Of a stretch of DNA of 64,000 bases, positions 5,640 through 42,982 are shown piece by piece. Source of the DNA: an uncultured Nitrososphaeraceae archaeon (GTDB taxonomy: Archaea; Thermoproteota; Nitrososphaeria; Nitrososphaerales; Nitrososphaeraceae); the NCBI GenBank assembly GCA_963825865.1, contig CAWGVG010000022.1:1-64000 (forward strand). The letters are read 5' to 3'. Within the stretch, counting starts at the first letter, position 1, and every line of letters starts with the position of its first letter. The position numbers were made by a program, and so were the translations under genes. The notes beneath the pieces were generated by a model, which was given only the letters and a program-made list of their open reading frames with translations, had not been told where the DNA came from and made no database searches.

Positions 5640-6314
5640 TCAGTCAATTTGGAAAAAGGGATTTCCATCTTTGGGAATCAGAACCCGGTACTTACTATGT
5701 TTCTTATCTATAGTAACAAGTACATTGCCTTATGTTTTTCTAATTCAAATCCAAACTCAATTTATCATATAGTTTGACAAGATTTTGGATGGTTGTCAAC
5801 CGAATACCTCTGAAATCCCTTCTAAGATATTCCCTTTAGTTCCTTTGGATATATTGAACGGAAAACCGTTGATTAGGGTACCATGGGAAAATGAAACCGT
5901 ATGACAAACATAAAAAGGGTTTCAGATATCTCTGATTAGAAAACAAACTGATATCGCATAAAAGTGGTGGAGAAGCAGGCATCCATACTGAATATGAAGG
6001 ATAGCAATCAGGATCTGGTGGTGGTGTTGAAGGTTCCGGTTGTCTTACTGCCATCTGATTCGTTATCTTATTAGAAATCGTCTGTGTAGGTATTAGTTGA
6101 CTTGTTACTACAACATATTGGTCAACGATAAGATATCCTCCTCCGGACAGTAAGACAGACAGTAATGATTATGTCAAGCTCCTGATTAACTCCAAACGAA
6201 AGCAAAGACATAACAAATAAGCCTTGCGAAATCTCGTTGTTTTACTACTGTCAAATCTGGAGTTGAATATAATAATAATGATGCGATGATTGATGGTGAC
6301 TGAACTCGCTATCT

Positions 6315-12991: not shown

Positions 12992-13065
12992 GCCCTAGTA
13001 GCTCAGCGTGGTAGAGCGAAGGTTTCGTAAACCTTAGGCCGTGGGTCCAAATCCCACCTGGGGCT
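12992..13065 (+). tRNA. tRNA-Thr (anticodon CGT), intronless
   Basis: Acceptor GCCCTAG/CTGGGGC, D arm GCTC-AGCGTGGTA-GAGC, anticodon arm AAGGT-TTCGTAA-ACCTT, T arm GTGGG-TCCAAAT-CCCAC. Confidence 0.92.
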
Positions 13066-14171: not shown

Positions 14172-15448
14172 ATGGCTAGACCTCAAATTCAATGTCTATT
14201 AGCCTTAGTATTGCTCGTTACGATCTCAATTGGAATTAATACATCCATTTAGTTCTGTTATTGCTCAACCAGCAGTATTAAAAGATCCTAATCTAAAGGT
14301 GGAGTTAGTTGCTCAGGGATTACAACCTCCTACAAGCATGGCATTTTTGGGACCAAACGACATTTTGGTATTGGAGAAAGAAACTGGCACAGTACAGAGA
14401 ATTACAAATGGCAAAGTGCTTCCGCAACCCCTACTTCAAGTTCCTGTTTCAACAACAAATGAAAGGGGTATGCTTGGGATTGCTATTGCAAAGCATAATA
14501 ATGGTCCTACATACGTCTTCCTGTACTATACAAAACTTGGCGGGGGAACGCAATCACTTGCAAATGTTCTTTACAGATATGAATTAGTAAACAACCAACA
14601 ATTAGTCTAACCCTAAGCTTCTGCTAAATCTTCCAGCTATTCCTGGCACTAATCATAACGGTGGCAAAGTGGTGATTGGTCCGGACAATAACGTATATGC
14701 TGTTATTGGTGATCTCTAAAACTCACAGAACTCAAGCTCAAAATGTAGCCAATGGACCACCCGCTGATAGCACTGGCGGTATACTAAGAGTTACACAGGA
14801 CGGTCAACCTGTACCAAACTCTCCACTAGGGCAAGATACAGCTGCTCCTCTGAATCTGTATTATGCCTATGGAATACGCAACAGTTTTGGGATAGGCTTT
14901 GATCCTGTAAGCGGAAAACTATGGGATACTGAAAATGGTCCTAAATATGGAGATGAAGTTAATCTTGTTGAACCTGGATTTAATAGTGGATGGGTACAGG
15001 TAATGGGAATATGGACTCCAGAGGGAGCAATAGGAAAAGAGACTGCAGGACCAGTCAATTCTAATCCATCATCTAACTTGGTAGACTTTGGAGGAAAAGG
15101 AACATACAGACCTCCTGAATTCATATGGTTGAAACCAGTAGCTCCTACAGCCCTCAAGTTTTTTGATTCAGTAAAACTTGGCAAACAATACCAAAATGAT
15201 ATGTTTGTAGGAGATATCAAAAATGGCAATCTTTATCATTTTAAGCTGAACCAAGATAGAACAGGACTAGTTATTAACGACATACACTATCTAACAAGAT
15301 ATCCAATACACCACAGGATAGTCAACCATTAATATTCGCCAGTGGATTTGATGGTGGAATCACAGATTTACAAGTCGGACCTGAAGATGGCTATCTCTAT
15401 GTTCTTACATTTGCAGGTTCAATATACAGAATAATTCCATCTTCTTAA
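14172..15448 (+). CDS. PQQ-dependent glucose/sorbosone dehydrogenase family, frameshifted
   Basis: Signal peptide; PTSMAFLGPNDILVLEK, ERGMLGIA, HNGG, YAYGIRNSFGIGFDP, WDTENGP, GGITDLQVGPEDGYLYV. Confidence 0.9.
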
Positions 15449-16481: not shown

Positions 16482-17019
16482 TCACAATATACCAGTGCAG
16501 CAGATAAGATAAGCAATTAAAGTTCCAGCATTTTGAATCCTTCGTCCTTTTATCATATTTTTTAATTCGTCGATGGAGACAATTTCAAGTCTTATAATGT
16601 CTTCTGTGCCATCATGGTTAGATTTATCTTCAATCAGAATCGTTTGCTCTAAAGATATGAACAAGCTGTCTTGATTTGCTAACTGATGGGTGATACGTAT
16701 ATATATATTGAATTTCGTTCGCAAGATAACCTGTCTCCTCGAGTAATTCTCTTTTAGCTGTTTTCTCAGCATATTCACCATTCTCTATGTGACCTGCAGG
16801 AAATTCAAGCAATACTTTACGTAATGGATACCTATATTGCCTTATCATTACTAAAGTATCTTCGTTAAGAAAAGGAACGATAACAACAACGTCTGAAGAT
16901 TTATACCACGTGTAGTGCATTATCTTTCCACTTCTTATTTCGACCTTATCTTGATACAATTCAATCCATGGATTTTGGAAAATGAGGTCGCTTTGTATTG
17001 TCTTCCAATCAGAGGTCAT
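16482..17019 (-). CDS. Nudix hydrolase (ADP-ribose pyrophosphatase-like), frameshifted
   Basis: IRQYRYP..LLEFPAGHIENGEYAEKTAKRELLEETGY Nudix box. Confidence 0.9.
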
Positions 17020-17809
17020 GTTATTATGCTCTATATTCTATAAAGCTGTTGTATTACCTCATTATTATTTATTTATTATGAATCTTTATCCAACATATAA
17101 GTATAAATCTAAACTGAAATGTAAGTATCATTATCTATCGCATACCAACAGATTTAGAGGAATCTGTTTTAGATGTAATTGCTGGAATTGAATTTTTGAC
17201 CAAAAAAGCGGGCTTTTGTAAGCGCTGTAGTCATCCAAGCAGCGGCATATTGTTAATTCAGAGAATATGGTGAAAAACATCAGTTACCCTTGATACTCAA
17301 AGATATGGTACATAAAGCATACCAGTTAAAAAAAAGGGAATTGTTCTATTCTGTTGATTCGTTGCAATGATGATAATGTATTGCCGCCGCATTGCTCTTG
17401 TATGTTTACGAAAAAAATAAACCAAAATGTTCGATAATCTTTGATAAAGCATAACATGGCCTTAGTGGAGTAACAGACAGTGTTCGAACAAGTACATGAT
17501 TGGCTTGTAGAAAATTTAACGCAGCAGTATTATCTTCTTTTATCTCCTTTGGTACTGACCTTCTCATTCGGGAAACTGGATAAGCAAAAACAACTATAAC
17601 AACAACAATATTGAATTTTACTTCATAAAACATAGAAACTTGATATATTAATGCATGTTTGCAGCTGCATGAATATGCGACAATAATTTCTTAAAATAAA
17701 TAAATAAGGGACTTTTGTATAAGTTTCTTATTCCTATGATCTTACCATTTTGTACTTTTGCTGCCAATACATGTTGGAATTGCAATTCTACTAACACTTT
17801 CAACTACGC

Positions 17810-17914
17810 TTACCAGTGTTCATGCAATGGCAAAAGAAATAGACTGCCTACAAGAACTATTCCTACGACCATACCTATCACGTAGATATTAGACCTAATT
17901 TTTTCCTTCCACAT
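17810..17914 (-). CDS. 34-aa single-TM micropeptide, copy A (MWKEKIRSNIYVIGMVVGIVLVGSLFLLPLHEHW)
   Basis: Below ORF-track cutoff; paralog at 42683-42787 with 27/34 identity and many synonymous changes. Confidence 0.75.
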   Translation of the reverse strand: MWKEKIRSNIYVIGMVVGIVLVGSLFLLPLHEHW

Positions 17915-18402
17915 ACGTTAAGTATCTTTACACATGTTTTTTTACTTAGGTCATTACAATTATGTGATTTATTAAAAGTGCTGCTTAGAGATATCTCAAG
18001 GTATACTTCATCATATGTATATTTATTTTTCATTCGGTAGAGCTAATTGTATTTAGTAAATGGCTAACGGACTATCATTTTACATTAGGATCATTTGCTG
18101 TGTTAAATATACTATGTAACTCAAATATAATATGAGAACGTTTGTAAACGTAAATAAAAAGTGGTAGATGTATTACTTCTAATGCTTTCTGTAAACTTAT
18201 CGTCGGATTGCATATTTTCTTAGATGTAAACTATCATCGAATGACGTTACGGTCTTAAACTTTTATTAAGATTTTGCAATTTAAAGTAGTAAGCAACTAT
18301 TCATCTATCCTCTCTGCATATCTACATATAAGGCAGCAGTTATGAAAAATCACAGATGCTTCTTACAACACTATTTTAATATTCATCAATATATCACGAA
18401 TA

Positions 18403-18555
18403 ATGTTTGAAAACATAACTTTAATCTTGTATTCGGTAACTGGTTTCGTCACCAGCTACCTTGCGCTTGAAGTAGCCTGGCACTTTACTGCATGTAAAAT
18501 TAAGTATAAATCAATAAAACCTTGTATGTTTAAACAAGTTGGCTTATTAAAATAA
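18403..18555 (+). CDS. 50-aa small membrane protein (MFENITLILYSVTGFVTSYLALEVAWHFTACKIKYKSIKPCMFKQVGLLK)
   Basis: ATG-to-TAA ORF with an N-terminal TM helix and a paired-Cys tail; below ORF-track cutoff. Confidence 0.55.
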   Translation: MFENITLILYSVTGFVTSYLALEVAWHFTACKIKYKSIKPCMFKQVGLLK

Positions 18556-18597
18556 AAACAAAGATAATAATAAAATATAGAATGATGGCCAGCAGTG

Positions 18598-18645
18598 AAA
18601 ACAAGTAGGGTGTTAGACTATAGTGCTAATTACGCAAGAGATCTA
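18598..18645 (+). mobile_element. Solo right end of the IS5/ISL2-type element found at 24690-25733
   Basis: AAAACAAGTAGGGTGTTAGACTATAG..CTAATTACGCAAGAGATCTA is nearly identical to 25686-25735. Confidence 0.9.
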
Positions 18646-18938
18646 ATGTAGATGCATTTACAGAATCTCACAAGGCATTACAACAATTTGCACAAGTAAA
18701 TCCTTCTTACTATGATTTGGTAGTTATGGATATCAGAACGCCTGGTCTTAATGGGCTTCAATTATATTACAGACTAAAGGCAATGAATCCAACCATCAAA
18801 GTGCTTTTTGTATCAGCTCTTGATGCAGCACAGGAAATGATAAGTATACTGCCTGGCGTGAAATTAGATGATGTTGTCAAAAAGCCGGTAAACCAAGAAC
18901 AGTTCCTTTACAAGGTAAAAACAGCACTCGCGCAATAA
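18645..18938 (+). pseudogene. Response regulator receiver, 5'-truncated at the IS end
   Basis: NVDAFT...YDLVVMDIRTPGLNG...VLFVSA...KKP starts right after the IS terminus; N-terminal acidic motif missing. Confidence 0.8.
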
Positions 18939-19159: not shown

Positions 19160-19891
19160 TTGTTTAAAAATCTATTCAAAAAGCTGGGACATATTTCACA
19201 AAAACTACCAGAAGAAAAATTCTTTTCAAATATTGTAGGGAATGATGATGTAAAGAAACTATTGATGCGTGCCATAGTTGCAAAAGATGGAGTAAGCTAC
19301 TGCCTGATCGGACCGCCAGCTTCGGCTAAATCAGCATTTTTACAGGAGATGGAAAAAGGTTTGGATGATGCTGTGTTCATTGATGGAACAGGTGCAAGCG
19401 GCAGAGGATTAGTTAACGTATTAGTTTCAAAACCAAACGTAAAATATTTGCTGATAGATGAAATTGATAAAATGACAAAAAGAGATGTTACTGTATTGTA
19501 TAACGTTTTAGAAACAGGACGGTTGCAAAGGAATAAAAAAGACCAGAAGGTTGACATGATGTTTCCAGGGCTAAGAGTATTTTCAACTTCAAATAGTAGG
19601 GAGAGAATGCCAAAGCCACTACAATCAAGAATTCAACCTTTAATCATGCATGAATATAGTTATGAAGAATTTGAACTGATCGCAATAAGTTTGCTGACTC
19701 AAAGATACAAACTACCAGAAACAACAGCGATAAAGATTGCATCTGGTGTGTGGACAAAACTAAAGAGCAAGGATATTAGAAGAGTGTTGACAATAGGAAG
19801 GGTTGCAAACCGAACAGATTCTGACAACGATATTGACTGGTTGATTGATACTCATGCAAAGCACATATTTGGGGAGACTGAATTTGATTAA
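19160..19891 (+). CDS. Stand-alone AAA+ ATPase (RuvB/MCM-like)
   Basis: IVGNDDVK, Walker A GPPASAKS, Walker B LLIDEIDK, sensor-1 STSN, Arg finger LQSR. Confidence 0.85.
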   Translation: MFKNLFKKLGHISQKLPEEKFFSNIVGNDDVKKLLMRAIVAKDGVSYCLIGPPASAKSAFLQEMEKGLDDAVFIDGTGASGRGLVNVLVSKPNVKYLLIDEIDKMTKRDVTVLYNVLETGRLQRNKKDQKVDMMFPGLRVFSTSNSRERMPKPLQSRIQPLIMHEYSYEEFELIAISLLTQRYKLPETTAIKIASGVWTKLKSKDIRRVLTIGRVANRTDSDNDIDWLIDTHAKHIFGETEFD

Positions 19892-20401
19892 AAAATACAA
19901 GGTTGTAAATATGTTTGAAGACCAGTGGAATTGTATAGCTGTCTACTTATCCCATAGGCTTGTCTTATAAGTGATAATGCATACGGTCTTTCGCTTTCTT
20001 GAGTTATGATTATCACTCCGAAATTACCCCTCATTGTCGCTTTTATTATTCTCGTGTGATCATTAAAATCAGAAATTTTAACTACAAAGTCTGCACGTAA
20101 CCTTGATTTTATAATATGAACCCTTGTAATGTTATGCCACGACTAAATGCAATGTATGTTTTTGTGGGTCGTATTGAACGTATTCTGAACCTAAATTCAA
20201 TATTACGTTTCAAAGTTCTGAATACAGATCTTTAATATTCTTTTCAGCTGATTTAACAAATCTTCTTCTGTGTACACATGTATTTCTTTGCTTACTTTTG
20301 GTAATGGTGGATAGAGATTCATTTTTATCTATAGGCCTCTATCGTCCATTATTATAAGATGAATTCCCACGTTCTTAAATCCAATAGGTATACTACTTTT
20401 G

Positions 20402-21232: not shown

Positions 21233-22264
21233 CGCTCTTATTCAGTAAATGTTTCAGCTAGTTGTAACCAAGAACTTTCATGAATCTTTCCTTTCTGTTG
21301 TCTGTATCACTCCTGCTGTTGTGAATAAACTGGAAGGTCTTTGTATATGACTGCAGGTTGTGTTTGTTAACACCCATGAACTTTCTGATCCATATCTTGT
21401 AAAGGTTGCTTCTACATTCACAATTGTTTACGTGTACAACTCCTCTTGCATATTCTTTTTGAGAATGACATACTTGTTTATGTACAAATCCATATTCTTT
21501 CAACTTCCTATAACCCAGATATTCGTCTGTGTATACTTTACAATGACGATGTACGGATTTACAAATATTACTGATCAGAGATTGTTTGGTACGAACATCA
21601 AAATATGTCATTCCTCCTCCTACTCCTCTTCTCTGATGAATACATGTTATCATTGGATTTTCCTTTTCATAGGTACCTCTTCCTCTCCAAGGTTTCAATC
21701 CTCTATGTCGTGGTAGTCTTCCAGAATTTAATATCTCTAGGTGATATGGTCTACCTTTCAGACCAGCCTTAATGTAGAATTCATCTGCTTCAACTATCCC
21801 TCCAAGTTTAACACTACCTAATGCAGAAGAAGAAGAAGAAGAAGAAGAAGAAGTTAATCTTTTCATGACAGATCTGATAAATTTGTAACATCTGTAATAT
21901 GACACACGTACTTCCAATGATGTTTCATGTATGGAACATCCAGGCCACAGTACAAAGAATAGGTATAATGCTAGGAACCATGCTTTCAATGGTGTATGTG
22001 AATAGTGAAATATTGTACCTGTTTTATCGTTGAACCACCTTTTACATTCTTTGCAAAAGTACTTCTGATATGAACGATAATACCCATCTTTCTTCACTTG
22101 CAGAGAATTACAATGTGGGCAAACTGCAAAGCTATTCCATCTGACATTTCTAAGTACTTTAGCACACCATCCTTCATCAGGGAGAGATTCGGAAAGCGTG
22201 AACATGTGTTTTCTAAGTAGAGGTTAGCAATAAGGCCGGCTGAAACATTCTATCAATAAGAGCG
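21233..22264 (-). mobile_element. Complete IS1595-family insertion sequence
   Basis: 26-bp imperfect TIRs (21233-21258 and 22239-22264, 22/26 match); perfect 8-bp TSD TATCATAT at 21225-21232 and 22265-22272. Confidence 0.93.
21258..22205 (-). CDS. IS1595-family (ISXO2-like) transposase
   Basis: Zn ribbon CPHC...CKEC, KTGTIF, VEADEFY, VYTDEYLGY, VHVNNCE; intact 315-aa ORF. Confidence 0.92.
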   Translation of the reverse strand: MFTLSESLPDEGWCAKVLRNVRWNSFAVCPHCNSLQVKKDGYYRSYQKYFCKECKRWFNDKTGTIFHYSHTPLKAWFLALYLFFVLWPGCSIHETSLEVRVSYYRCYKFIRSVMKRLTSSSSSSSSSALGSVKLGGIVEADEFYIKAGLKGRPYHLEILNSGRLPRHRGLKPWRGRGTYEKENPMITCIHQRRGVGGGMTYFDVRTKQSLISNICKSVHRHCKVYTDEYLGYRKLKEYGFVHKQVCHSQKEYARGVVHVNNCECRSNLYKIWIRKFMGVNKHNLQSYTKTFQFIHNSRSDTDNRKERFMKVLGYN

Positions 22265-22384: not shown

Positions 22385-22705
22385 CTACCAGATTAGCCGA
22401 CCGCCGCCATCGCCTTTGCCGCCGCCATCGCCTTTGCCGCGCCGCCGCTACTGCCGATACTGCCACTGCCAATGACGCCGCCTACAGCACTAGTCATGTT
22501 GGTCGCATTGACGCCGCCTGCAGCACCAGTCATGTTGGCCTTGCCGCCCTGCAGCACCAGTCATGTTAGCGGCCTTGCCGCCTGCAGCACCAGTCATATT
22601 GCCGCCCTGTGCAGCAGCAAAATTAGATGCTGCTATCAAATAAAGTGCTAGCATTGTTGCCAGTAATCCGACACCAATGACCGCAAAGTTTAGACTTTTG
22701 TTCAT
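22385..22705 (-). CDS. Secreted Gly/Ala-rich repeat protein, frameshifted
   Basis: Signal peptide then NMTGAAGG repeats and GGGKGD repeats; DNA repeats CTGCAGCACCAGTCAT and GCCGCCGCCATCGCCTTT. Confidence 0.65.
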
Positions 22706-37606: not shown

Positions 37607-39029
37607 TGAGTAGCCTAATTACACTAACAAGCATCAAGACAATGTCTGATAGAATAAGGCACGGAGATTTGTCTCCATCGGAGCTAGTTGAAGCCTGCTT
37701 AGAAAGAATCAAGAAATTTGACTCATCTCTAGATTCTTTCATTACTATTCTTGAAGAACGTGCGCGTCAAGATGCAAAAATAGCTGAAAAACAAATCAAG
37801 GAAGGACTCTGTATTGGTCCTTTGCATGGTATTCCATTTTCAATTAAGGATGTCATCTATGCAGAAGGAGTTAAATGTACTGCAGGTTCAAAAATAATGT
37901 CTGATTACGTTTCAAAAATTAACGCAACCTCTGTTGCAAAAATGAAAAAGGCAGGTGCAATTCTAATTGGCACTAATAATACCCATGAATTTGCTTGTGG
38001 GATAACTAACGTAAATCCGCACTATGGTTCTTCTAAAAATCCCTGGAACATATCAAAAATATCTGGAGGTTCAAGTGGAGGTTCAGCTGTTTCAGTAGCA
38101 GCAGGCATGGTACCTGTATCCTTGGCTACTGACACAAGCGGTTCTATTAGAGTTCCATCTTCACTTTGTGGTGTTGTCGGTCTAAAGCCAACATATGGTA
38201 GAGTCAGCAAATATGGGATTGTTGATTTGGCACCTTCGCTAGATTCATGTTGGGTGTATAACAAGAAGTGCATGGGATGCAGCTGCAGTATTGCATATTA
38301 TTGCTGGTCAGGATCCCCTTGATCCAACTACTGAAGATAAAAAAGTACCTGATTACGTTAAAGTTATCGAAGATGAATCTACCCCCATGAAGAAAATATC
38401 TGTTGGAATACCCAAAGAGGTACTTTTTCGATTATTTGTGGCTAGAAGTAGAAGAGGTGTTCCTTGATTTCGTTGATACTATAAGATCCATGGACATTTC
38501 TGTTTCTGATGTACACATTAGTGGAGCCGACAAAATCTATGAATCGTGGAGACCACTAAGACTTGGGGAATCAGCAGAGATTCACTTGAAATGGTTGCAG
38601 ACAAGATCAAAAGACTATGGTGAAGATGTACGAAGAATGTTGATACAAGGAACTGAAGTATCTGCAGTTGATTACATACGAGCTCACAAATATAGAAAGG
38701 AACTAAGAAATGAATTTGTGAAAGTATTAAAGAAGGTTGATGTGCTTATTATGCCAACTATTCCTCTCACTGCTCCGGGGTTTGACGAGCAAACAGTGGC
38801 TATTGGTAGCAGAACATTACAAATCTATCAAGCCTTAAGTAGAAATACTATTGCATTTGATAATACGGGACTACCTGCGGTTAACATTCCAGTTGGATTT
38901 GGGAAGGACAATATGCCAGTTGGAGCACAAATAATAGGGCCGCCATTTGAAGAAGAAAATATTCTGTCTCTAGCATATGCATACGAACATGCAAATGACA
39001 GTCTTATGAAATTCATGCCACCACTTTAA
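37606..39029 (+). CDS. Amidase-signature family enzyme (GatA/AtzE/allophanate-hydrolase-like), frameshifted
   Basis: GPLHGIPFSIKD, GGSSGGSA, DTSGSIRVPSSLCGVVGLKPTYGRVS, GLPAVNIP; start overlaps the biuH stop (TAATG). Confidence 0.9.
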
Positions 39030-40493: not shown

Positions 40494-41622
40494 CTACATT
40501 CTGATAGTTAGCGCATTATGTATAATTTGGAAGGTTGCTGGCAAGATTCCAATAGGCTCACCGTCGATCGTAACAGTTACGTCCCTTCTTTTTTTCTCTT
40601 CTTCTTTTGGCTTTATTAAAACCTTCTTAGCTTGTATATATAACACATCATCCTCCTTATCATAGGTACCTTTTTTTATGTTAATGAAGTCACTCATCAT
40701 CTCTAGACTATTGGAATCCTTCAGAATAACTATATCCAATAATCCATCAGAGACATCAGCGTTTGGTGCTGCTTTAAATCCACCACCTAGGAATTTACCA
40801 TTGGCAATTATACACATTGTTACCTTAGTAAGAATAATCTCTCTTCCATCATCGATTGAAATTTCACATATACTGCTCTCATAAGTGGATACTGTAGTAA
40901 TCAAACTTGAAACAGTAGAGACTAGTCGACTGTTAATCTTATTTCTTATTTTCTTTGATTTATCAATTATCTCTGCTGCTATGCCTATTTCAGCAGCATT
41001 GAGAAATATTCGTATTGGTAACGATAAGCGAGTTTCTGGATCGGTTGCTGCTGACGGAGATTACATCAATCTTCTTTTGTTTACCACACACAAATGTTTG
41101 ACAACATTCCTCAATTCCATCAGGCATATTTAAGGACTTGACAAGCACATTTCTTGTTCCTCTTGGTAACACTCCCATTATGGCATCAAGTGTTAATAGG
41201 TTTTATCATCATTGAATCAACGACAGCATGTGCATCAGCATTGTTGTTATTGTTGTTATTTTTATTTTCTATGTTTCCGACATATGATGATCTGAATAGG
41301 TATCTTTTCAACACAAAAGAAGCCATTTGCAACTTCATTTATCGTTCCATCTTCCTCCTATTGCTACAATTTTTTTGAATCCTTCCTTTAAGAATTTTCT
41401 TGTCAGGATTCTTCCATCTCCAGATTTTTTGGTAAACGCTACTTTAGGATTTTTACCAAATGTTTTTTTTATTTTATTAAAGAGATTTTCCCAGTCCTTA
41501 CCAGTCGAACCACTCGAGGATTTTGGATTTACTATCAATACGGTATCAGTAGTATCTTTTATATCAGCGGTTATGCCAGCCAAAGAATCCGTGCTTTGGT
41601 GAATGGAAGTGTGTGCTTTCAT
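40494..41622 (-). CDS. Diacylglycerol/lipid kinase family (YegS/DAGK), frameshifted
   Basis: LIVNPKSSSG, VAIGG(DGT)INEV, LPRGTRNVL, IANGKFLGGG, DGLLDIV, IDGE. Confidence 0.88.
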
Positions 41623-41924
41623 TTTTATTATCAAACGAGATATGTAATAATAACACTTACGTCACATTAACTATCTTTTATTATATTATTTTATAGTTTA
41701 TTGTTATATATATAGTGCATGTTGCCAATAAATGAAGTCAAAGGTAGGCAGCATTAGTGAAGAATTTAGAAACTATACTGGAATACATGAACATGACTTT
41801 AGAAAATAACAAAACAACAATACCAGAGCAAGAGAAATGTGCTACATATCGGATAGTATAGTATTATAGAATCTAATGATATTTTTATTCCTATTGGTTC
41901 TATATTCCTTATTAAACATTGTAA

Positions 41925-42290: not shown

Positions 42291-42682
42291 GCAGATCAGG
42301 CACAGTATGATGACATTAACCTACCGTGATTAGAGTTAAAGCAACCGGTGTAATTATTATTAGAGAGGACTGGTGTAGCATTATAATGCAAGTCTGCAAT
42401 CGTCTCCGCTGTTCATGGCAAATGGGAAGTCAAAGAAGTAACCGACCCCACATCCATCTACTAGTTCTTAGACTTCACTTGAAGGTGCTAATAGCTTCTT
42501 TTTCAAAAAATGAGTGTGGTAATACTATCTATCCGATCAATATCAAAGCATTATAAAAGGTTAAATTATGAAGAATATACATATGATAAATCATATCCAT
42601 ATAGTATTTCTAAACTGCACTTATGATAAATCATATAATGTGCTGACATAAGTAAAAGAATAACTTCTGGTAACTTTGACAT

Positions 42683-42787
42683 ATGTGGAAAGAAAAAATT
42701 AGATCAAACATCCATATAATAGGTATGGTCGTGGGATTAGCTCTGGTTAGCAGTCTATTTGTAATTCCGCTGCATGAACACTGGTAG
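42683..42787 (+). CDS. 34-aa single-TM micropeptide, copy B (MWKEKIRSNIHIIGMVVGLALVSSLFVIPLHEHW)
   Basis: Paralog of 17810-17914; same length, start and stop conserved. Confidence 0.75.
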   Translation: MWKEKIRSNIHIIGMVVGLALVSSLFVIPLHEHW

Positions 42788-42982
42788 ATTGTTCAGGACA
42801 CTACTTTTTTCACAAAATTGAAGATCATATTTCATGATATTTTGATAATATGAAATCGACAATAATAAATCAATCAACAAAAGGATGTGAGTTCTCATGT
42901 TTTCAGACTGTTGAATACTAATACTACAACAGCAACAATCTAATTTCTGTGGCCGCTCAAGAACAATTACTAAAGACAAAGT

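Follow-up and report, generated by a model that had tools for sequence, protein, structure and literature searches.

Two short open reading frames in the archaeal DNA analysed here, in the following referred to as copy A and copy B, are very probably real protein genes kept by purifying selection. Judged by sequence searches, they belong to a gene family which is previously undescribed and restricted to one archaeal family. The analysed stretch, called the window, covers positions 1-64000 of contig C22 of a 4.98-Mb assembly. We give about even chances to the reading that A and B are functional copies of a gene for a single-pass membrane protein, transcribed as a leaderless unit, which would act by packing of its helix and by a tail directed to the outside. 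The features of both loci are collected in Table 1.

Table 1. Positions of the two gene copies in the window and of the sequence elements around them.
Feature	Position	Strand	Basis
Copy A, reading frame of 34 codons and TAA stop, MWKEKIRSNIYVIGMVVGIVLVGSLFLLPLHEHW	17810..17914	minus	translation; profile E = 5.3e-22
Copy B, reading frame of 34 codons and TAG stop, MWKEKIRSNIHIIGMVVGLALVSSLFVIPLHEHW	42683..42787	plus	translation; profile E = 9.4e-21
Conserved upstream region of copy A (-1..-108), read as promoter; holds the ATCTCTAA block at 17985-17992	17915..18022	minus	A/B alignment, blastn, family-wide upstream alignment
AAGTAAAA box of copy A, ending 25 nt before the ATG, putative TATA box	17940..17947	minus	own-genus form of the family TAGTAATA box
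AAGTAAAA box of copy B, ending 25 nt before the ATG, putative TATA box	42650..42657	plus	box-spacing scan
16-nt palindrome ATATGATAAATCATAT, first copy, candidate operator	42581..42596		motif search
Second copy of the palindrome, TTATGATAAATCATAT, 40 nt downstream of the first	42621..42636		motif search
T6 run, 17 nt past the stop of copy B	42805..42810	plus	sequence; putative oligo-T terminator
Cassette B, promoter to terminator, shared with the C48 copy (282 bp, 93.6%)	42550..42831	plus	blastn (5868-6149 on both loci), three-copy alignment

Coding character and distribution of the gene

An earlier sequence-only reading of the window had proposed a 34-residue peptide in two diverged copies, with mostly conservative replacements and many silent codon changes between them. 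Both reading frames are present, they lie 25 kb apart on opposite strands, and their products are identical at 27 of 34 residues, which is far above chance (E = 6e-16, tblastn against the 4.98-Mb genome). The seven replacements from A to B are Y11H, V12I, I19L, V20A, G23S, L27V and L28I. Nine codons carry a synonymous change alone, and the two stop codons differ as well, so that the description of the codon changes holds. The dN/dS ratio between A and B is 0.12 (Nei-Gojobori, with Sd = 11.5 of S = 21.3 synonymous and Nd = 8.5 of N = 80.7 non-synonymous sites), and 12 of the 20 differences are synonymous compared to 21% expected (p = 1.6e-4, binomial test for synonymous excess).

The same sign of selection is visible in the wider family. 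Among 24 distinct relatives, compared over 28 aligned codons, the mean pairwise difference is 0.314, 0.142 and 0.551 at codon positions 1, 2 and 3, respectively. The reading frame closes at the same Trp-stop in many genera, where the 24 relatives use TAA (13), TAG (6) and TGA (5). Taken together, dN/dS, synonymous excess and codon-position pattern bear out the proposal of a real protein under purifying selection.

A very different view would be that the reading frames are remnants of signal anchors from larger secreted proteins, or that the frame is incidental to a conserved non-coding element of DNA or RNA. The peptide does resemble a complete signal peptide with basic n-region, hydrophobic h-region and boundary Pro, it shows a weak likeness to the N-termini of SnoaL-like proteins of 175-179 residues (L008-L010, E ~1e-5 in a small database), and gene fragments abound in the window as in the genome. 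Against this stand the common Trp-stop with all three stop codons in use, the family's own conserved promoter at a fixed distance, and the fact that third codon positions vary while the amino acids are kept. No conserved RNA structure was found either, as RNAalifold on the segment from -75 to the stop in 24 sequences yielded -1.75 kcal/mol and 0 covarying pairs. A scan of 17600-18200 against Rfam by E-value gave no match at E <= 1, and at gathering thresholds the sole match in the whole window is a tRNA at 12992-13065 (+). We consider this view largely refuted by the results on RNA structure, codon positions and box spacing, and hence highly improbable.

To determine how far the family extends, two profiles were used. 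The first (A2, built from nine sequences, cut-off E <= 0.01) matches 99 out of 201 genomes of the same taxonomic family in 14 out of 18 genera; this tally includes four genomes marked as unpublished (G184, G176, G092, G050). The second (A5, built from 30 sequences) was run over 301 genomes of the class. Within the same family it matches 13 out of 39 genomes; the 261 genomes from elsewhere in the class gave three marginal matches (E 5e-4 to 1e-3), each within a reading frame of 188-577 residues, which we read as chance. Within the family the occurrence is patchy: the one-contig genomes G001, G014, G047 and G058 gave no match, nor did 29 out of 34 genomes of genus g2 and 32 out of 37 of genus g15. 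Matching genomes mostly carry 1-3 matches each. Among the matches listed, one outside this genome contains an in-frame stop and 15 end before model position 32.

The peptide had been called unannotated, which agrees with the database searches, as the gene is almost never called. A search of 5.8 billion cluster representatives with a natural 49-residue, GTG-started reading frame from a relative (L003) retrieved 3 proteins, unnamed or labelled "hypothetical"; with the profile, a set of 1.84 billion yielded 21 representatives at E <= 1e-3. Eight of these 21 end in x-E-x-W(Y), three extend past the Trp, and ten end otherwise (frameshifts, fusions, variants). Pfam gave no family for either peptide, and the best matches in NCBIfam (E = 0.013, in 2 of 30 members) and among PDB chains (E = 3.9) are not significant. 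The best score of a feature search in the ESM Atlas was 0.78, which lies below the mark of 0.9 and provides leads alone. No description of such a peptide from these archaea was found in the open-access literature.

Upstream region, cassettes and copies in the genome

The flanks of the two copies had been described as dissimilar. This is correct for the downstream flanks, which are unrelated; upstream, approximately 108 nt can be aligned, and blastn joins A and B over -108..+104 at 76% identity. The conserved upstream block consists of ATTTCTAA, about 12 nt, CTGA(G/C), 5-6 nt, and TAGTAATA, and is common to many genera and to both subfamilies of the peptide (see below). With at most one mismatch allowed, 24 of the aligned relatives carry the TAGTAATA box, and in 23 of them its end lies 21-24 nt ahead of the start codon. 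In the four copies of the type found in this genome the corresponding AAGTAAAA box ends 25-27 nt before the start codon.

In archaea the TATA box precedes the transcription start by about 23-30 nt. With the box 21-27 nt away from the start codon, we therefore read the mRNA as leaderless, and the TAGTAATA/AAGTAAAA box as its putative TATA box. Each copy would accordingly form its own small transcription unit with a conserved promoter, a transcription start at or next to the ATG, the 105-nt reading frame and, in most copies, an oligo-T run soon after the stop. Oligo-T is the kind of signal which ends archaeal transcripts. It is found within about 20-35 nt of the stop in most copies (the C48 copy, genus g16 and G008 are comparable), and copy A has no T-run within about 100 nt of its stop. 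The downstream alignment revealed no element past the stop that is conserved across genera. A scan with a bacterial sigma-70 promoter and terminator model stayed at shuffle level, and this model is not relevant to archaea.

The combination CTGA-N5-7-TAGTAATA was also considered as a general regulon motif and discarded, since it is not enriched genome-wide: in five relatives 3, 5, 2, 6 and 4 matches were counted compared to 2, 3, 9, 5 and 4 for the reversed control. Upstream of the own-genus copies the palindrome ATATGATAAATCATAT occurs twice with a distance of 40 nt, also at C48:45544 and C48:45584, with an exact match ahead of the C48 copy. The pair is a candidate operator for some regulator. 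Throughout the genome, ATATGATAAATCATAT has 25 matches with up to two mismatches and its reversed control has 14; one extra near-exact site (C12:22052) has no peptide reading frame adjoining.

The genome holds more than the two copies noted at first. By tblastn and profile search we found 11 family matches, four of them intact and seven decayed, plus one paralogue of the sister type. The intact copies A, B, C48:45646-45747 and C51:38592-38491 all possess the upstream region, and all four copies in which promoter and start codon are present are intact. Five of the decayed copies (C51:43091, C3:96778, C29:89485, C50:1455, C26:72674) lack the promoter as well as codons 1-7 and share one 1-nt deletion just before the stop. 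They represent the end of a 1.3-1.5-kb repeat (C3:95350-97000, C29:89400-91000, C50:1-1680, C26:72590-74100, C51:43000-43400) which has no long reading frame, contains internal repeats of about 250 bp and is 83-97% alike between its copies. Two further copies (C18:562-663, C3:241479-241576) are broken by deletions within a repeat of about 3 kb. The position of decayed copies inside repeats indicates that a part of the family travelled within larger repeats. The earlier reading had named such a larger mobile repeat as an argument against its proposal; by blastn it applies to the five decayed copies, and A and B lie outside any such repeat. The genome as a whole is large (4.98 Mb at 82% completeness) and rich in repeats.

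The intact copies show a different pattern of sharing. Beyond the 282 bp which copy B and the C48 copy have in common their flanks are unrelated, A and B have just a 215-bp unit in common (blastn), and in G008, which belongs to another genus, three copies of the sister type share 254-276 bp alone, at 94-97% identity. The sharing between B and C48 and within G008 indicates that the unit from promoter to terminator, with a length of about 270 bp, forms a discrete cassette, dispersed in two genera at least. The likeness of the copies would result from movement of the unit or from homogenisation by gene conversion. The alignments of the copies showed no clear terminal repeats. The copies are dispersed over contigs C22, C48, C51 and others and are not arranged in tandem. 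An integrative element between the two C51 copies, which lie 4.4 kb apart, was considered and rejected; the reading frames between them code for radical-SAM and nitroreductase proteins, and no integrase is present.

Such cassettes raise the question of a semi-selfish, type I toxin-like unit, in which the peptide in excess would harm or depolarise the membrane, an RNA from within the approximately 270-bp unit would silence it, and the whole would spread and decay like addiction or stress modules. According to Fozo et al. 2010 (PMC2887945), candidates for type I toxins are reading frames of less than 70 aa with a predicted transmembrane region, repeated copies classically stand in tandem in one intergenic region, and the families then known occur in Firmicutes and gamma-proteobacteria only. 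The 34-residue peptide with its transmembrane helix falls within these limits of sequence. The toxins Ldr, Fst, Ibs, TisB and ZorO share with it the size, the single transmembrane helix, a polar or aromatic C-terminus (here P-L-x-E-x-W, with E and W in 30/30 sequences), the presence of several copies, similarity that extends beyond the reading frame, and rare annotation. Regarding distance from neighbouring genes, copy A lies 1246 nt and 791 nt from the nearest reading frames of at least 90 aa in the ORF list; for copy B the gaps are 447 nt on the upstream and 246 nt on the downstream side, a borderline isolation. The discrete cassettes, the decay of seven out of 11 copies in this genome and the patchy distribution over species would fit as well.

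Other observations argue against a toxin. Neither an antisense RNA nor an antisense promoter was found (the RNA contigs leave the locus uncovered), and no post-stop element is conserved across genera. The copies are dispersed instead of tandem, most matching genomes show only 1-3 matches, and the mRNA, if leaderless, would be without the 5' UTR typical of many bacterial type I systems. Moreover, N9, G14, M15, G18, E32 and W34 are kept over 14 genera with dN/dS about 0.1, a tighter constraint than one would expect for a helix with a generic membrane-disrupting role. We therefore regard a toxin-like cassette as unlikely. Slightly more doubtful still is the specific proposal that the unit corresponds, in archaea, to a type I toxin-antitoxin or addiction cassette, restrained by RNA and spreading and decaying in the repeat-rich genomes of soil ammonia oxidisers. 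If true, it would be the first toxin-antitoxin cassette of this kind for this archaeal group, for which the open-access literature gave none.

Peptide anatomy and the C-terminal tail

The proteins of the family have 33-36 residues. In 30 aligned sequences M1, G14, M15, E32 and W34 are invariant, and at least 90% also have N9, G18, L25, F26 and P29. The most hydrophobic window of 19 residues covers positions 10-28 (mean Kyte-Doolittle value 2.69). The flank on its N-terminal side is basic in 30/30 sequences with a net charge of +2 to +4; the C-terminal flank is acidic in 24/30 and contains one positive and one negative charge in 6/30. The AF2 model of copy A is a single helix comprising residues 2-33 (pLDDT 87). 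The layout proposed earlier, with basic N-terminus, one transmembrane helix and polar tail, is thus supported by hydropathy, flank charges and structure model, and the GxxxG motif reported with it is present as a conserved small-xxx-small motif, G14xxxG18, in the membrane helix.

According to the positive-inside rule a basic flank stays cytoplasmic. A basic N-flank combined with an acidic or neutral C-flank leads to a predicted topology with the N-terminus inside and the C-terminus outside. This is in agreement with a metagenome protein of 226 aa (P0016), in which the same N-terminus and helix anchor a domain rich in Ser, Thr, Pro and Met, that is, an ectodomain behind the helix. In five related genomes this ectodomain was not found, and the peptide part alone was matched.

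Both copies in the window end in PLHEHW, and a tail His-Glu-His-Trp had been regarded as invariant. This is true for A and B but not across the family, where the 30 sequences show EEHW (8), HEHW (6), HERW (6), QEHW (4), HEQW (2), TEHW (2), AEHW (1) and VEHW (1). A fixed His-Glu-His site is consequently not a family trait. A residue other than His at position 31 or 33 is always accompanied by His at the other position, so that one His at least is present in 30/30 sequences, and both in 6/30.

A sister subfamily of the same length class has the form MFK-x-TKFN-x-C-x-IGM-x-VG...LPF-x-GL-x-C-[RK]-W-C, and in many cases a few small residues come after it. The sister subfamily agrees with the present family in the N-terminal half, the GMxxG face and the upstream block ATTTCT...TGAG...TAGTAATA, and is likewise dispersed as cassettes of about 265 bp; it differs by its tail, C-x-W-C instead of x-E-x-W. 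One copy is found in this genome (C5:47071-47169, minus), and further loci are L011, L014, L016, L019, L055, L056, L061, L062 and L065. Grouped by E-value class, the sister subfamily dominates in genera g9, g12, g13, g14 and g17.

These tails bear on the proposal that the peptide presents a metal-binding site for Cu, Ni or Zn, perhaps formed across several chains, which would serve copper handling in an ammonia oxidiser. The host genome carries the archaeal amoA gene (E = 5.4e-115), and the tail is predicted to lie outside of the cell. The lack of a conserved His pair weakens the reading: both His occur in only 6/30 sequences, so that the ligands of a single chain would be limited to one His, one Glu and the carboxylate. 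In its favour, no sequence lacks Glu32, none is without a His, and a CxxC-type pair is present in the sister tail, C-[RK]-W-C. The sequences are kin, so that 30/30 overstates the number of independent observations. A ZIP transporter (L055), a P-type ATPase (L054) and a plastocyanin-like gene (L060) are located nearby, each at a single locus, which amounts to metal-related neighbours at 3 of 22 annotated loci and not to a conserved association. The Met-rich fusion protein P0016 matches the Fe2+ transport protein family PF10634 with 19.4 bits where the cut-off is 21, a sub-threshold match from one sequence. All in all we hold a metal-binding role of the tail to be rather improbable.

Possible mode of action and genomic neighbourhood

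Returning to the membrane protein reading, a mechanism in which G14xxxG18 mediates helix packing and the outer Glu/His/Trp tail contributes to function is one we put forward tentatively, with somewhat less confidence than the general reading itself. The N-terminus would be kept in the cytoplasm by its basic residues, residues 10-28 would span the membrane, and the last six residues, P-L-x-E-x-W-COOH, would be exposed at the outer face, placing the Glu/His/Trp tail at the outer membrane interface. The conservation of Asn9, the G14-M15-x-x-G18 face, L25-F26, P29, Glu32 and Trp34 suggests packing against a membrane helix. The likeliest partner would be a larger membrane protein that is tuned or stabilised by the peptide; the helix may alternatively pack on itself. 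A homodimer prediction based on the 30-row alignment yielded a score of 0.06 where the mark is 0.42, and no verdict is drawn from this tool. Several observations count against the mechanism: no conserved neighbour gene points to a partner in 22 annotated loci, many copies are broken, and the patchy distribution would be unusual for the subunit of a core complex.

Small single-pass proteins which tune larger membrane proteins are familiar from bacteria, with MgrB, SafA, AcrZ, KdpF and CydX as examples. Like these, the present peptides have less than 50 residues, one helix, short conserved termini and stand-alone genes that are missed by gene callers. They differ in that there is no sequence relationship, the host is an archaeon and the copies occur as dispersed cassettes. 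In the Atlas feature search, clusters of YncL, YniD-like and YoaK proteins ranked nearest, with scores of 0.75-0.78 (<0.9).

A closer relation by host is sP24 of Methanosarcina mazei, a small membrane protein encoded by spRNA24 for which a preprint (bioRxiv 10.1101/2025.10.28.685009) gives an antisense RNA partner and a salt-stress phenotype. By its description there, sP24 resembles our family in being archaeal, with one predicted transmembrane helix, a short stand-alone transcript and a narrow range. It differs in the N-terminus, which is predicted outside, and the antisense partner and the salt-stress phenotype belong to sP24.

No class of genes is less annotated than that of the small membrane proteins, of which next to nothing is known in ammonia-oxidising archaea, the drivers of soil nitrification. 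The family reported here is conserved, specific to one archaeal family and nearly always missed by gene callers, has a well-defined putative promoter, residues suited for mutation (G14, G18, E32, W34 and the His pair) and a sister with a CxxC-type tail. Its conservation, promoter and mutable residues may provide a tractable entry to the roles of micro-proteins at the archaeal membrane. A role as a toxin-like cassette or as an extracellular peptide for metal handling would, if confirmed, make it a new type of system for this group; for an ordinary accessory helix, the gain would chiefly be a better annotation.

No gene recurs across genera beside the peptide, as judged by Pfam for 20 reading frames at the two loci of the window and 147 at 20 loci of other genomes. 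At six loci from five genera (L048, L050, L058, L053, L065, L090) genes for a histidine kinase or response regulator are found within a few kb of the peptide gene; two-component genes lie near the first five of these loci and near the copy on contig C51. This recalls the bacterial small proteins that tune sensor kinases; it could also be chance, and two-component genes may be common here.

Small shares of a 9.9-kb stretch around copy A are represented in fourteen RNA runs. Among these data, the contigs from four soil metatranscriptomes (X1-X4) cover 14182-15414, 16700-16997, 18415-18884, 19165-20006 and 22401-22597, and leave 17303-18295 without cover. This says little about copy A, since an assembly would probably miss a transcript of about 130 nt, and it is no evidence in either direction. 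Contigs of all four metatranscriptomes follow the window as far as 18601, where they pass into one and the same unrelated sequence; in one run the match resumes at 18644. The segment 18601-18644 looks like the boundary of a rearrangement or insertion relative to transcribed relatives.

At 14230-15332, 19160-19891, 38403-39029, 40494-41634 and 21258-22205 the window also contains a set of gene fragments together with a transposase; many of its genes are fragments. The fragments include a glucose/sorbosone dehydrogenase split into reading frames of 126 and 218 aa, an MCM/AAA fragment, the C-terminal part of an amidase alone, and a DAGK_cat/YegS_C pair split over two reading frames. The transposase, which lies beside them, is intact and of the IS1595 type.
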